From Alphaproteobacteria bacterium (lineage in GTDB: Bacteria; Pseudomonadota; Alphaproteobacteria; RF32; CAG-239), in the NCBI GenBank assembly GCA_017528205.1, contig JAFXPE010000032.1, positions 145,986 to 209,985 on the forward strand: a DNA stretch of 64,000 bases, given 5' to 3'. The position numbers and the translations under genes are program-made. Below, one piece after another: positions 15,619 to 23,071 of the stretch (its first letter is position 1; every line of letters begins with the position of its first letter). Below the pieces are notes generated by a model that searched no databases, was not told where the DNA came from, and saw only the letters and a program-made list of their open reading frames with translations.

Positions 15619-17832
15619 TTAGCTCAAAGGAGCGTCCATTTCAAATCCGGCGCTGTCATCCTCTTCGGCGTTGTATTCAATGCCCAATTTGGCCAGCATA
15701 TCGTCATTAATATCTTCACGCTGTGCCACAATCCAATCCGGAACATTCGGGCAAGCAGGCAACTTCGCCAATTTGCTCATTCTTTTATCCAAATACCAAC
15801 GCGGAGAGTCGGCAATAATCGGGCGGTCGATATGGCTTTGCATCAACACCACTTGCTTTAACATCGGCAAACTCAACAGCTGTGTCGAGCTGATAACCGG
15901 AATGCCTTGCAACTGATAGTTAACGTTTTTCGCCAGCGGGTTAAAGTCTTTACCCAAGCTACCCTCTGTTCGTGAAAATGACGAAATACGCACGGTTTTG
16001 TTACCAATCATCTTAGAGAAACGTTGTGCCGTAACTTCGTTGTTTTGCGAAAGAATAACTTTGCAGGCGGTGGTAGAAATCACCGTTTCCAAATCATCTT
16101 TTCCGTATTTGCCGGAGATTTGGCCCAAGTCTTGTCCGATTAGCAAATAAGACACTTTTTGACCACGACCTACGGCCGGTCCGTCGATAATAGCTTTCAT
16201 CTTAGGCATTTGCGGAAACTCGTCGAGCACGAACAACGCAGGGAAAGGTCCCATTTTGCCGTCGGTACGGTTAACGTGATTCGGCGGATTGGAAATCAAA
16301 TAAGACGACATCAACTCAATAAAGGTAGAGCTGATAACGCCCAACGCACGCGCATCAACCTGGTTAACCGACAGATATACGGAAATCGGCTTCCATTCTC
16401 CGGTAACCGGATCTTTCATACCGCGCAAATCCTTAAACAACAAATCCGAAAAACTTGTCCGCGCTTTAACCGCTTGGTTCTTGAATACGTTAATGCCGGC
16501 AAATGCAGTAGAAAGAATGGAACCGCGCTCTTTATCCGGAGTGTTGCTCAAGGTGCTCAATTCCGTAATGCAACGCTGAGCATAACCATAATTACGGGCT
16601 TCCTTAATTGCTTCTTCAAGCATATCTTTAGTCGGGTCGGCCATGGCCGCCATCTGATCGCCTTCGTCCAAACGACGTTGAATTTCGTGAGCGGCGTTGA
16701 TTTGCGCCTCCGTAATCCATTCCATAATCATGGCAATGCAAGCCTCACGTCCCATCCAACGCGATGGCAGCAAATTCCACGTTCCGATAGGTAGATAATT
16801 TTCCATGGTCAGTGTGCCGTTTTTCAAATTTTGTAAAGCACGTTGAACTCCCGGATCACGCATATCCATATAATAACCTTCGAGAACTTCCTTATCTTTT
16901 TCATCAAGCTTGCCTTCATAAATGCGGCCGATAAAATAATCGTTGGCACGGGCACGCTCACATTTGGAAACCACAAATTGAATAAATCCGGTTAAGGCTG
17001 CACGACCGGTTTGTGACCAGTGCGGATCGGCGCCGCCTTTCGGATCTTCAACCAAAATGTTACACATGGAATCCACATACATATCGCGGTCCGGACCTTG
17101 TTCCGGAATACAGCTCGGCGACAGCGGGTTCCAACTCGGATAATAAATGCCTTCACTCGGATTATCTTCTGCACCCCAGTTAATGATAAACACCGGCCCC
17201 ACTTTGGCGCGAGCACCCGAAGTGTTATAACAAAGCTCCGGTTTCGGGTCGTTAATCACCAAACTGAGCTTGTCGGAATTGAAAATCGTCGGAATCACCA
17301 CGCCGGCGGTTTTACCGGTACCAGGAGGTGCGCAGCACAGCGTGGCCAAGGTTTCTTTTAACATTAAAAATTTGCCGTCAAACTTGCCGACAACCTGGCA
17401 GAAACCGTCAAAACCCAACAGCGACATTTTCTTAATGTCGCGCAAATCGGCAATTTTGGCCTGACCTTGATAGTTAACCTGAAACTTATACGGACTGAAA
17501 ATGGCGCTGACAATCAAACCGAGCGGAATGGTAATAAACGGCAACAGCGGAATCCACAAACTGAGCGAAAACCCGCCTTGGTGATTCCACAGCTGATGTC
17601 CCCATTTTCCATACATGGTAAACAAGTGATTAGGATCTCTGGCAATAAGCGCCAAAAACTTCTGAATGACATCGGTTGAGGACTTAGAAACGCCGTGTCC
17701 CACCAAATAAGAAAGCGGTAGGGCGAAAATAAATAAAATTATGCTTAACACAAGGCAAATCAAGAAAGTTACCGTCATCCACCTGACGGCTTTGTCATAT
17801 TCTTTCCATTCTTCACCGCGATCGTTTGCCAT
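15619..17832 (-). CDS. type IV secretion/conjugation coupling ATPase, VirD4/TraG/DotL family
   Basis: Two N-terminal TM helices, Walker A LCCAPPGTGKTAGVVIPT, Walker B ALFVLDEFPQMP, conserved IGQDLGQI..GK region, acidic C-terminal tail; 737 aa. Confidence 0.8.
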   Translation of the reverse strand: MANDRGEEWKEYDKAVRWMTVTFLICLVLSIILFIFALPLSYLVGHGVSKSSTDVIQKFLALIARDPNHLFTMYGKWGHQLWNHQGGFSLSLWIPLLPFITIPLGLIVSAIFSPYKFQVNYQGQAKIADLRDIKKMSLLGFDGFCQVVGKFDGKFLMLKETLATLCCAPPGTGKTAGVVIPTIFNSDKLSLVINDPKPELCYNTSGARAKVGPVFIINWGAEDNPSEGIYYPSWNPLSPSCIPEQGPDRDMYVDSMCNILVEDPKGGADPHWSQTGRAALTGFIQFVVSKCERARANDYFIGRIYEGKLDEKDKEVLEGYYMDMRDPGVQRALQNLKNGTLTMENYLPIGTWNLLPSRWMGREACIAMIMEWITEAQINAAHEIQRRLDEGDQMAAMADPTKDMLEEAIKEARNYGYAQRCITELSTLSNTPDKERGSILSTAFAGINVFKNQAVKARTSFSDLLFKDLRGMKDPVTGEWKPISVYLSVNQVDARALGVISSTFIELMSSYLISNPPNHVNRTDGKMGPFPALFVLDEFPQMPKMKAIIDGPAVGRGQKVSYLLIGQDLGQISGKYGKDDLETVISTTACKVILSQNNEVTAQRFSKMIGNKTVRISSFSRTEGSLGKDFNPLAKNVNYQLQGIPVISSTQLLSLPMLKQVVLMQSHIDRPIIADSPRWYLDKRMSKLAKLPACPNVPDWIVAQREDINDDMLAKLGIEYNAEEDDSAGFEMDAPLS

Positions 17833-17847
17833 TTTTTCCTCTGTTTA

Positions 17848-22064: not shown

Positions 22065-22147
22065 CAGAGTATCTCCCGAAAATACATATTTTTGTTAACT
22101 GTAATATAACATAAAAAAACTTTTTTGTCCATAATTATTTTTTTTGC

Positions 22148-23071
22148 CTAAACCTTAAGTTTTTTCATAAAATTACCGATTTCCAAATTCACGCGAATAC
22201 CGTCTTTGGGTGTAACTTTGACCAAACCGAAAAAGCGCGGCTTGATTTTTTTGAAATCTATCGGGGCAAAAATCGCCGGATTGGTAGTCAGAGCCTTGTA
22301 TGCGCCATCGATATCTTTTTGCGCCACCCGAAAATAATTGCTGACCAAGCGCTCGGCATCAATCGGAAAATCTTTGGTTTTCAGCGCTTCAATAAATTTG
22401 TTTTGGCGTTCTTTGCGGGCCAAATATTCTTCGTACATAATTTTTTTGATGTGTTTTTCCTGATATTTGAGCAATTTTGCCTGATACGTCAGTTCGCAGC
22501 TTTCCATATCAATCAATATTTCAACATAAGAAATAACCGCCAACTGCAAATCCTGATCGCGCAAAGTTTCGGCAAAATTTAAAAATTCCTCGTCGGAAGA
22601 ATTAACCGAAAACTTGCCGACGTTGTCCGGAAAAAGATTGCACAGCAAAGTCCAGCCGGAAACAAGGTCGTTGGCCAACACAACCCCCACGCTCGGCTTA
22701 TAGTTCGGGTATAAATCTTCTATCACAAAGTTCCATAGCGGAGTTTGCATATTGCGGTCGGTGCACAATTTGTTGATGGAAGTTTGATAATTGATAAACG
22801 CTTGCGCCAACTCGGATTCTTCGCTTTTCAGCTCCGGCTTGCTTTCTTCGTCTTGAATAACCGTGCGCGCTTCATTAAAAGTAGAAGTTAATTCTTGTTC
22901 AAATAGTTTATCGGCTTCTTCGTTTTCGGCTTGTGCTTCCGGACTGTATTTAGCGGTTGCATCGGCTGAATCATCGTTTTCTTCTTCTTCATCGTCCAGC
23001 TTGGTATTGATAAAGCTGTTCAAGAGTTTTTCAAAATCGTCGCCTTCGCTGAAAATTTCTTCATCGCTCAT
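22148..23071 (-). CDS. acidic hypothetical protein (first gene of the minus-strand operon)
   Basis: 307 aa, N-terminal 110 aa highly acidic (DDEEEENDD); no recognised domain. Confidence 0.55.
   Translation of the reverse strand: MSDEEIFSEGDDFEKLLNSFINTKLDDEEEENDDSADATAKYSPEAQAENEEADKLFEQELTSTFNEARTVIQDEESKPELKSEESELAQAFINYQTSINKLCTDRNMQTPLWNFVIEDLYPNYKPSVGVVLANDLVSGWTLLCNLFPDNVGKFSVNSSDEEFLNFAETLRDQDLQLAVISYVEILIDMESCELTYQAKLLKYQEKHIKKIMYEEYLARKERQNKFIEALKTKDFPIDAERLVSNYFRVAQKDIDGAYKALTTNPAIFAPIDFKKIKPRFFGLVKVTPKDGIRVNLEIGNFMKKLKV

Follow-up and report, generated by a model that had tools for sequence, protein, structure and literature searches.

The stretch of DNA analyzed in this work (hereinafter, the window) spans 64,000 nucleotides of contig JAFXPE010000032.1 (positions 145,986 to 209,985; assembly GCA_017528205.1) of an Alphaproteobacteria bacterium, and it harbors, on the minus strand, five co-oriented open reading frames (ORFs), the last of which codes for a type IV coupling protein (T4CP). 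The other four are referred to as p307, p725, p159, and p496, according to the number of residues of their products (Table 1). In the order of transcription, the distances between adjacent genes are 83, −1, 69, and 15 nt; with this spacing, the five genes fit a single operon running from 23071 down to 15619, as proposed in a preliminary description of this DNA made from the sequence alone. The start that the public gene call assigns to p496 agrees with the MKS... start of its orthologues.

Table 1. Genes of the operon and mapped features (positions are those of the window; aa, amino acids)
Feature	Position	Strand	Remarks
p307	22148-23071	-	307 aa
p725	19887-22064	-	725 aa
p159	19408-19887	-	159 aa
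p496	17848-19338	-	496 aa; public gene call: start 19332 (6 nt later), 494 aa
T4CP	15619-17832	-	737 aa; last gene of the operon
T4CP Walker A, PPGTGKT, aa 169-175	17308-17328	-	P169, P170, G171, G173, K174, and T175 invariant; T172 in at least 90%
T4CP Walker B, D537-E538 in LFVLDEF	16219-16224	-	columns D537, E538, and F539 invariant
p496 two-helix, Trp-rich hairpin, aa 1-107	19018-19338	-	model helices 2-33, 42-53, and 61-107; hydrophobic segments
p496 block DHALFKFDDDxDDFDLDIDSFEK, aa 194-216	18691-18759	-	invariant columns inside the variable linker; conserved in the distant clade too
p496 PD-(D/E)XK (NERD-like) domain, aa 334-496	17851-18339	-	alpha-beta-beta-beta-alpha-beta order in the AlphaFold2 model
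p725 sole conserved island, aa ~290-326, ...FDFEAVKEQDIIQYMFNAWFLGSINGVMKWAFQKA, aromatic and amphipathic	21087-21197	-	occupancy 1.0; mean conservation 0.52 versus 0.1-0.3 elsewhere (70 orthologues)
p725 basic Gly/Arg/Ser-rich C-terminal tail, last 25 aa	19890-19964	-	net charge +6
Divergent intergenic region between the operon and rluD	23072-23159	.	position kept in the close clade; presumed operon promoter site

The coupling protein and its four partners

The T4CP sequence matches three Pfam families, all of them over the gathering scores, i.e., T4SS-DNA_transf (E-value 4.7e-56), TraG-D_C (2.6e-21), and TrwB_AAD_bind (5.3e-17), with 191, 76, and 62 bits, respectively, versus cut-offs of 20–22. 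The VirD4, TraG, and TraD models of NCBIfam match as well, with scores far under the equivalog cut-offs, which marks the protein as a divergent member of the family. It is composed of a two-segment membrane anchor (hydrophobic segments at residues 14–49 and 88–115), an all-alpha domain, a nucleotide-binding domain, and an acidic tail of about 50 residues (...AEEDDSAGFEMDAPLS). These data agree with the previous assignment of T4CP to the VirD4/TraG-type ATPases, with an N-terminal membrane anchor, Walker A and B motifs, and an acidic C-terminal tail. The alignment from which the conservation of the two Walker motifs was derived takes in a plasmid VirD4 that is only 36% identical.

An exhaustive search over 1.84 billion representatives retrieved 4733 relatives of T4CP, the nearest of which outside the main clade are 37–55% identical to it. 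The three best plasmid matches are located on megaplasmids of Sphingosinicella, Erythrobacter, and Microvirga (about 33% identity over 92–95% of the length). Each of these VirD4 proteins is encoded by the last gene of a virB cluster in which VirB8, VirB9, VirB10, and VirB11 precede VirD4; VirB2 and VirB4 are annotated only in the Erythrobacter cluster, the upstream genes of the other two being labeled as “hypothetical”. In a rough neighbor-joining tree, the clade of the window groups with four further lineages (P0361, P0362, P0364, and P0365), and the VirB-linked VirD4 proteins of the plasmids form the sister group of this assemblage. Furthermore, the T4CP-family profile, compared with the PDB sequences, retrieved Cag-beta (8dol; 5e-5) and TrwB (0.13) and did not reach DotL. 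Moreover, T4CP lacks the DotL-like adaptor-binding extension, since it stops about 50 residues after the nucleotide-binding domain. Judging from these sequence comparisons, T4CP is a VirD4-type (type IVA) coupling protein and not a DotL-like one.

This bears on one of the proposals of the preliminary description, according to which the operon would encode a Dot/Icm-like (type IVB) coupling sub-complex whose partners act as DotM, DotN, and IcmS/IcmW. The proposal draws on an analogy in layout, in that p496 lies directly upstream of T4CP and small acidic partners are present; dotM, likewise, precedes dotL. What is shared with the DotL-DotM-DotN-IcmSW-LvgA complex is limited to the idea of a T4CP ringed by dedicated membrane and cytoplasmic adaptors: no component shows a sequence or fold relationship, and no likeness to DotM, DotN, IcmS, or IcmW was detected among the four partners by profile or by fold. 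Since the profile does not match DotL, the long C-terminal extension is missing, and the closest annotated relatives are type IVA VirD4 proteins, this reading is largely refuted, and we regard it as very improbable.

As for the partners, none of the four gave a significant match in Pfam, NCBIfam, or PADLOC, and p307, p725, and p496 gave none by phmmer against the PDB sequences; the earlier statement that they are not recognizable parts of a type IV secretion system (T4SS) thus holds for these searches. The traits previously ascribed to each of them were also recovered: the acidic N-terminus of p307 (net charge −22), the low-complexity K/A/Q-rich composition of p725 (A 12%, K 11%, Q 7%; no transmembrane segment), the membrane nature of p159 (two transmembrane segments), and the membrane anchor (a transmembrane hairpin), disordered charged linker, and NERD-like nuclease-fold C-terminus of p496.

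The p496 protein consists of a membrane hairpin, a conserved basic segment (KRKSYKQIRP), an acidic-aromatic block, a disordered charged linker, and a C-terminal PD-(D/E)XK/NERD-like domain. The AlphaFold2 model comprises a confident helical membrane hairpin (residues 2–107), a disordered region (112–329), and the C-terminal domain (334–496). According to the positive-inside rule, the hairpin is predicted to be N-in/C-in, with both ends and the tethered domain on the cytoplasmic side. The C-terminal domain has the alpha-beta-beta-beta-alpha-beta core of restriction-endonuclease-like folds. At least 95% of the 79 p496 orthologues retain D358 (on beta2), D373, and E375 (the latter two at the end of beta3), with K (or R, in a sister lineage) in position 374, and a highly conserved loop, GDWLADEEMFNGEEPLWFSE.SHRVSPV, follows beta3. 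These residues may form a D...DxE variant of a metal-binding site, an arrangement that we would liken to that of BamHI-type enzymes; the site is putative. With the Pfam NERD model (PF08378), the p496 of the window gave no match at E ≤ 1, and 26 out of 34 homologues did match (best E-value 6.5e-6). Neither a single-sequence PDB search with p496 nor a profile search of the hairpin domain against the PDB sequences retrieved anything. In comparison with the known NERD/PD-(D/E)XK nucleases (PF08378; e.g., AF1548, NucS, Hjc, and the Can2 nuclease domain), p496 differs in that its domain hangs from a membrane hairpin via a disordered linker of about 220 residues; it also carries the motif D...D-(K/R)-E instead of D...(D/E)xK, has a large conserved loop inserted after beta3, and is genetically fixed to T4CP.

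The p159 protein is a small inner-membrane protein with a short Lys-rich cytoplasmic tail. It is alignable with the N-terminus of p496 (BLASTP E-value 5e-8) and falls into the same cluster in an all-against-all BLAST; in an intermediate clade, moreover, its position is occupied by a full-length p496 paralogue of 371 residues, which indicates that p159 is a truncated duplicate of the p496 hairpin.

The cytoplasmic p307 has an all-helical model, with a predicted local distance difference test score of about 90 for residues 80–230; an amphipathic motif at its N-terminus (GDDFEKLLNSFI) is conserved, and conservation is strong over the C-terminal third. The fold search retrieved generic helix bundles and no specific structural relative, and the profile search against the PDB sequences was empty. 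In this respect, it is worth comparing the operon with Cag-beta (Cag5) of Helicobacter pylori, the best solved-structure match to the T4CP profile. Cag-beta works with a small all-helical partner, CagZ, as well as with an effector recruited via a chaperone; p307 has no fold match to any PDB entry beyond the generic helix bundles, and the cag system, unlike the operon of the window, is an island of horizontal origin whose channel genes lie adjacent.

Lastly, the p725 orthologues are soluble and fast-evolving proteins, whose length ranges from 427 to 1069 residues; p725 was detected by tblastn in 26 out of 80 loci (22–49% identity), and some gene is always present in that position. Apart from the conserved island (Table 1), the feature that is kept is the basic end: a G/R-rich tip closes most of the 70 orthologues, and their last 25 residues have a median net charge of +3, versus −0.1 expected from the composition of the whole protein. 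Positively charged C-termini act as VirB/D4 secretion signals. On the basis of its sequence, p725 might be effector-like or scaffold-like; its rapid divergence, variable length, and retained positive C-terminal tail would resemble those of a secreted substrate.

Similar acidic-aromatic motifs of the “DDxFE” type occur in the p307 N-terminus (GDDFEK), the p496 linker (DFDLDIDSFEK), and the T4CP tail (DDSAGFEMD, 15619–15670), and the motif is expanded in the 1013-residue T4CP of lineage P0363; moreover, the p496 motif is, in our opinion, reminiscent of the acidic C-terminal tip of the single-stranded DNA-binding protein (DFDDDIPF). None of these similarities was used as evidence.

Phylogenetic distribution and genomic context

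A scan of one genome per species retrieved 152 relatives, and the counts given below rest on the best 80 of them. All 80 are uncultured gut or rumen Alphaproteobacteria, among them RUG/RGIG metagenome-assembled genomes (MAGs) from the rumen, Hadza and human gut MAGs, Proteobacteria bacterium CAG:495, and Candidatus Scatocola; the latter is placed in the Rhodospirillales by NCBI, and we take the whole group to be the GTDB order RF32. In about 65 of the 80 loci, rpoH and rluD, which lie on the opposite strand, are followed by p307-p725-p159-p496-T4CP; the exceptions are mostly truncated contigs. In one sub-clade (L015–L018 and L036) p307 is missing, and the p725 gene follows housekeeping genes, e.g., cysS or secY in the two scanned loci (L018 and L015). 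Over the 80 species, T4CP is 72–94% identical to that of the window.

The comparison of each protein of the window with those of the near and the far half of the 80-locus set gave, respectively, identities of 87% and 74% for T4CP, 81% and 73% for RpoH, 73% and 64% for RluD, 60% and 42% for p307, 55% and 38% for p496, and 43% and 25% for p159; p725 is 26% identical in the near clade and mostly undetectable in the far one. T4CP is thus about as conserved as RpoH, which is unusual for a conjugation gene, and a constraint on a par with that of a heat-shock sigma factor argues for a lineage-core function.

A more distant clade (L038–L081; e.g., L054:5245–5526) harbors, between rluD and p307, an additional gene for an N-terminally anchored protein of about 93 residues (DUF6476, 3.7e-7), which is missing from the intergenic region of the window and may have nothing to do with the operon.

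These data do not fit the accessory island that the preliminary description had proposed: the locus is syntenic with rluD-rpoH in most of the relatives, T4CP is conserved like RpoH, and there is no compositional anomaly, the GC content being flat over the operon and equal to that of the flanks (the GC skew merely tracks the gene strand). The same holds for the possibility that the operon is the remnant of an integrated conjugative or mobilizable element that retained only the coupling protein and accessory genes. In such a remnant, the nuclease fold of p496 could presumably replace a restriction-endonuclease-like relaxase. Mobilizable elements, moreover, can carry a T4CP without a T4SS (PMC4027160). 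However, the same context is kept in about 65 species, T4CP is under strong purifying selection, and no relaxase, integrase, repeats, or tRNA border was found at the locus. We therefore rejected the idea of an island or element remnant, since synteny and composition argue against it and neither a relaxase nor an integrase was found at the locus, and consider it highly unlikely.

Equally doubtful, in our opinion, is an anti-phage or anti-plasmid defense system made up of a HerA/FtsK-superfamily ATPase and a nuclease effector; a defense-like system of the FtsK/HerA type had been among the suggested alternatives. No PADLOC model matched any of the five proteins (none better than E = 0.5), no defense genes were found nearby, and the locus has a typical composition and, instead of varying between genomes, forms part of the fixed, syntenic core. 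This candidate was rejected on the PADLOC result and the core synteny.

The presence of T4SS channel genes was checked in the window and around the related loci. The Pfam scan covered 30 ORFs of the window, mostly of at least 150 residues, the shorter ORFs and six longer ones lying outside it; precomputed Pfam data covered the called genes of the window between 5.6 and 27.8 kb and those of the 10 kb past its right end. Neither the 30 ORFs nor the called genes so covered include T4SS channel genes, a relaxase, or an element-type integrase, which, within this scope, agrees with the earlier statement that no VirB, Trb, Tra, or Dot/Icm channel gene and no relaxase are visible in the window; the sole tyrosine recombinase of the window is a XerC/D-like gene located 30 kb from the operon. 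A virB cluster just outside the window, which had been considered beforehand as a condition against an orphan T4CP, was not found in the 10 kb on the right side. Similarly, probing by tblastn with VirB4, VirB8, VirB9, VirB10, and VirB11 of the nearest plasmid did not retrieve any match from any RF32-type locus, the window included.

A further scan, carried out on metagenomes with the p496 alignment, retrieved 80 loci. Wherever the contig is long enough, p496 is directly upstream of a T4CP (42–88% identical to that of the window); the p496–T4CP pair is thus the conserved core in the wider relatives. Probing these 80 loci with the Erythrobacter VirB2–VirB11 and with three Microvirga VirB proteins gave a match in a single one of them, L109. 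This 131-kb gut metagenome contig (GC 53.5%) harbors the same p496–T4CP core, with a T4CP 60% identical to that of the window, and, on the minus strand (L109:2059–5282), two genes for VirB8 (3e-21 and 2e-10) plus one for a SPOR-domain VirB9/CagX-like protein (2e-12). These three lie about 5–8 kb upstream of the T4CP operon, where the neighboring genes code for a DEAD-box helicase, an esterase, IF-2, and RbfA. A long ORF encoding a membrane-anchored protein with beta-flower repeats (L109:2–2098) runs off the locus. The occurrence of two VirB8 genes and a VirB9 gene near the same core implies that VirB parts do coexist, in a scattered form, with this T4CP clade.

The sister lineages differ in the genes next to T4CP. 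In P0361 (T4CP 55% identical), T4CP is preceded by a 387-residue p496 homologue with the hairpin and the NERD-like domain (1e-28) and followed by two proteins of 212 and 144 residues; in P0362 (51%), it follows ruvB-ybgC; in P0364 (53%), it is divergent from a pseudouridine synthase gene, near rpoH, and is followed by genes for a lipoprotein and a LpoB-like protein. In both P0363 (41%) and P0369 (37%), the gene translationally coupled to T4CP codes for a pentapeptide-repeat protein whose tail is basic. The latter proteins, encoded directly upstream of T4CP (L087:8772–10001 and L085:8691–10004, respectively), have a long charged tail and a basic C-terminus, and the T4CP of P0363 (1013 residues) carries an acidic, aromatic-rich C-terminal extension of about 300 residues.

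Moreover, in many clades T4CP is followed by a gene for a protein of about 200–350 residues and by one for a protein of about 150 residues with a sub-threshold, immunity-like SUKH_5 match; this pair occurs behind T4CP in 19 species-level loci and not in the window (examples are L046:12237–13278 and L083:12265–13334, as well as L100–L135), and the larger protein shows a conserved C-terminal NL.LI..HP.H..LH motif. From their sequences, the two proteins may represent an effector–immunity pair. In the sister lineage with a T4CP of 55% identity, three tandem type IV pilin-like genes (with an N-terminal methylation motif and a weak PF07963 match) are located just downstream of the T4CP module (L083:13456–14776).

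Possible roles of the operon

In principle, and according to the data reported above, two scenarios deserve to be weighed. In the first one, which we favor and to which we assign about an even chance of being correct, the operon represents the module that couples substrates on the cytoplasmic face of a VirB/VirD4 (type IVA) system, which would be chromosomal, vertically inherited, and scattered, with its channel genes in other islets of the genome. The hairpins of p496 and p159 would pack on the membrane domain of T4CP and thereby keep the nuclease-fold domain positioned at the entrance of the motor; this domain, in turn, might carry out a relaxase-like processing of a nucleic-acid substrate or might have turned into a docking platform. 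The p307 protein would act as an adaptor or chaperone, p725 with its basic C-terminal tail as a substrate or scaffold recognized by T4CP, and ATP hydrolysis by T4CP would pass the substrate to the VirB channel encoded elsewhere.

Several lines of evidence are in agreement with such a coupling module. T4CP scores over the Pfam thresholds, and its Walker motifs are invariant; its nearest annotated relatives (33% identity), which form the sister group in the rough tree, are encoded at the end of virB clusters on megaplasmids. L109 combines VirB8 and VirB9 genes with the same p496–T4CP core, p725 has traits of a substrate, and the two proteins encoded behind T4CP in many relatives look like an effector–immunity pair. 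Furthermore, a core, syntenic locus with a T4CP conserved at the level of RpoH is what would be expected of a lineage-defining secretion system. In Rickettsia, the vir islets are scattered, duplicated, and vertically inherited, with a highly conserved VirD4, and T4CP genes are commonly located in separate operons with substrate-processing genes (PMC2653234).

Some of the data weigh against this scenario. No VirB, Trb, or Dot gene was found in the window or in the 10 kb beyond its right end, nor within 10 kb of T4CP in the 80 species-level genomes and in 79 of the 80 metagenome loci, and unlinking from VirB that is so consistent is unusual for VirD4. L109, the sole VirB-adjacent case, belongs to a different, higher-GC lineage, and its VirB8 and VirB9 proteins, used as queries, found no homologue in any other fetched locus. 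All five sister lineages (T4CP 37–55% identical) show housekeeping contexts, with no VirB neighbor found. Lastly, a nuclease-fold partner that keeps its acidic triad suits DNA processing better than the secretion of protein effectors, and the effector-like view of p725 is drawn from charge statistics alone.

The second scenario, which we consider a rather unlikely though serious competitor, is a channel-independent inner-membrane machine, in which a domesticated hexameric translocase of the VirD4 family would work with the tethered PD-(D/E)XK nuclease p496 and with p159 to handle DNA at the membrane as a housekeeping function (cutting and pumping it, releasing it, or clearing trapped DNA), with p307 and p725 as regulators; by analogy, this would parallel the motor–nuclease pairs of the HerA–NurA or FtsK type. 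It accounts for the T4CP being unlinked from VirB in the window, in about 160 related loci (L109 excepted), and in five sister lineages, and for the core locus, syntenic with rluD-rpoH and about 10 kb from parAB-dnaE, near the origin-type cluster mnmE-mnmG-rsmG. The RpoH-like conservation of T4CP, a constant partner with a nuclease fold and the conserved residues D358, D373, and E375, and the pentapeptide-repeat protein translationally coupled to T4CP in two further lineages point in the same direction; the pentapeptide-repeat fold is known as a DNA mimic. On the other hand, the closest relatives of T4CP are canonical VirB-linked VirD4 proteins, VirB8 and VirB9 lie near the same core in L109, and p496 lacks the canonical (D/E)xK lysine position, so that a nuclease activity is putative. 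All parts are cytoplasmic or confined to the inner membrane, with no evident route across the outer membrane, and we know of no VirD4-family protein that functions without a channel. The narrower claim that a VirD4-family ATPase acts, together with p496 and p159, as a lineage-core, channel-independent machine that cuts and translocates DNA at the cytoplasmic membrane is, in our view, somewhat more doubtful still.

The coupling module of a scattered VirB/VirD4 system, as proposed here, can be compared with two known type IVA systems. T4CP shares the Pfam domains, the membrane anchor, and the Walker motifs with VirD4 of the Sphingosinicella, Erythrobacter, and Microvirga megaplasmids (VirB/VirD4; mating-pair formation type T, MPF-T); the plasmid gene lies at the end of a contiguous virB cluster beside topoisomerase, primase, and Rad52 genes, whereas T4CP of the window is chromosomal and core, has no VirB neighbor found, and is preceded by genes for four unrelated proteins. 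The rvh archipelago of the Rickettsiales is likewise chromosomal and vertically inherited; its islets are dispersed between housekeeping genes, VirB8 and VirB9 are duplicated, and VirD4 is highly conserved (PMC2653234). L109, with two VirB8 genes and a VirB9 gene amid housekeeping genes near the same T4CP core, resembles it. However, the Rickettsia virD4 shares one islet with virB8–virB11, whereas T4CP of the window is separate, and p496, p159, p307, and p725 have not been described as rvh partners.

The T4CP family is already known, and an unlinked T4CP is in itself unsurprising. The novelty lies in the fixed set of partners (chiefly p496, a NERD-like protein on a hairpin tether, and p159, its truncated paralogue), in a core locus whose T4CP is conserved at the level of a sigma factor in a widespread gut lineage without cultured members, and in the existence of a wider clade of VirD4 homologues that are chromosomal, unlinked from VirB, and combined with interchangeable partners. 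The literature search retrieved no description of the p496–T4CP pair or of its core status and nothing relevant on orphan T4CPs.

T4CPs gate the substrates of conjugation and of effector secretion, and the set of exported molecules is defined by their partners. If the channel is encoded elsewhere, these common commensals would possess a secretion system that has so far escaped recognition, together with new adaptors and a candidate effector that evolves fast, which would be of relevance for host or interbacterial interactions in the gut. If there is no channel, a coupling protein would be able to work alone with a nuclease, and the annotation of orphan T4CPs would change; a T4CP with a housekeeping function apart from type IV secretion would be the first of its kind. 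Either way, the p496–T4CP pair is a clean, testable module.

Genes surrounding the operon

By gene content, the window is an ordinary stretch of chromosome, with housekeeping genes on either side of the operon, as previously reported. On the left side, mnmE, mnmG, a gene for a PHP protein, rsmG, parA, parB, and dnaE are followed by genes for a membrane protein without a known family, an ankyrin-repeat protein, a H+-pyrophosphatase (H+-PPase), and MarC, and then by the operon. Beyond the latter, there are rluD, rpoH, a resistance-nodulation-division (RND) efflux trio, genes for a glutathione S-transferase (GST), a ParA-like, and a DnaJ-like protein, tgt, and an ABC exporter; farther to the right, greA, genes for a glycosyltransferase, an aldolase, ATP synthase a/b, and DsbA-like and XerC/D-like proteins, RNase PH, addB/addA, murJ, and others are located. 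The 10 kb past the right end of the window consist of housekeeping genes as well.

No convincing sigma-70 consensus was found in the intergenic region between the operon and rluD, where the placement of the promoter is inferred only, and the promoter and terminator scans around the operon gave no useful excess over the shuffled expectation. The “RNA-HTH module” (HTH, helix-turn-helix) that the preliminary description had placed beside the operon turned out to be weak: no Rfam family matched within 14000–25000, and what stands is an 89-residue ORF (15299–15568), convergent with T4CP, which has a sub-threshold HTH_25 match and was found only in the three closest relatives.

The window is 99.97–99.995% identical to a 239-kb rumen-type metagenome contig of the ENA (ERZ28018792:k141_3123974). 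The two are not base-identical, with one gap and two mismatches across an 11-kb overlap, and addA (54377–57793), a single ORF of 1138 residues in the window, corresponds to two genes (491 and 606 residues) on that contig. The mnmE ORF (129–1100) encodes just 323 residues; the usual N-terminal domain is missing and a stop codon is present upstream within the window, which might be due to a frameshift, a split gene, or an assembly error. Lastly, the region 10070–11753 encodes a polytopic membrane protein of 322 residues (with a Lys-rich tail and no Pfam match) followed by the ankyrin-repeat protein (240 residues in the public call); ankyrin proteins are common among the T4SS effectors of other Alphaproteobacteria.

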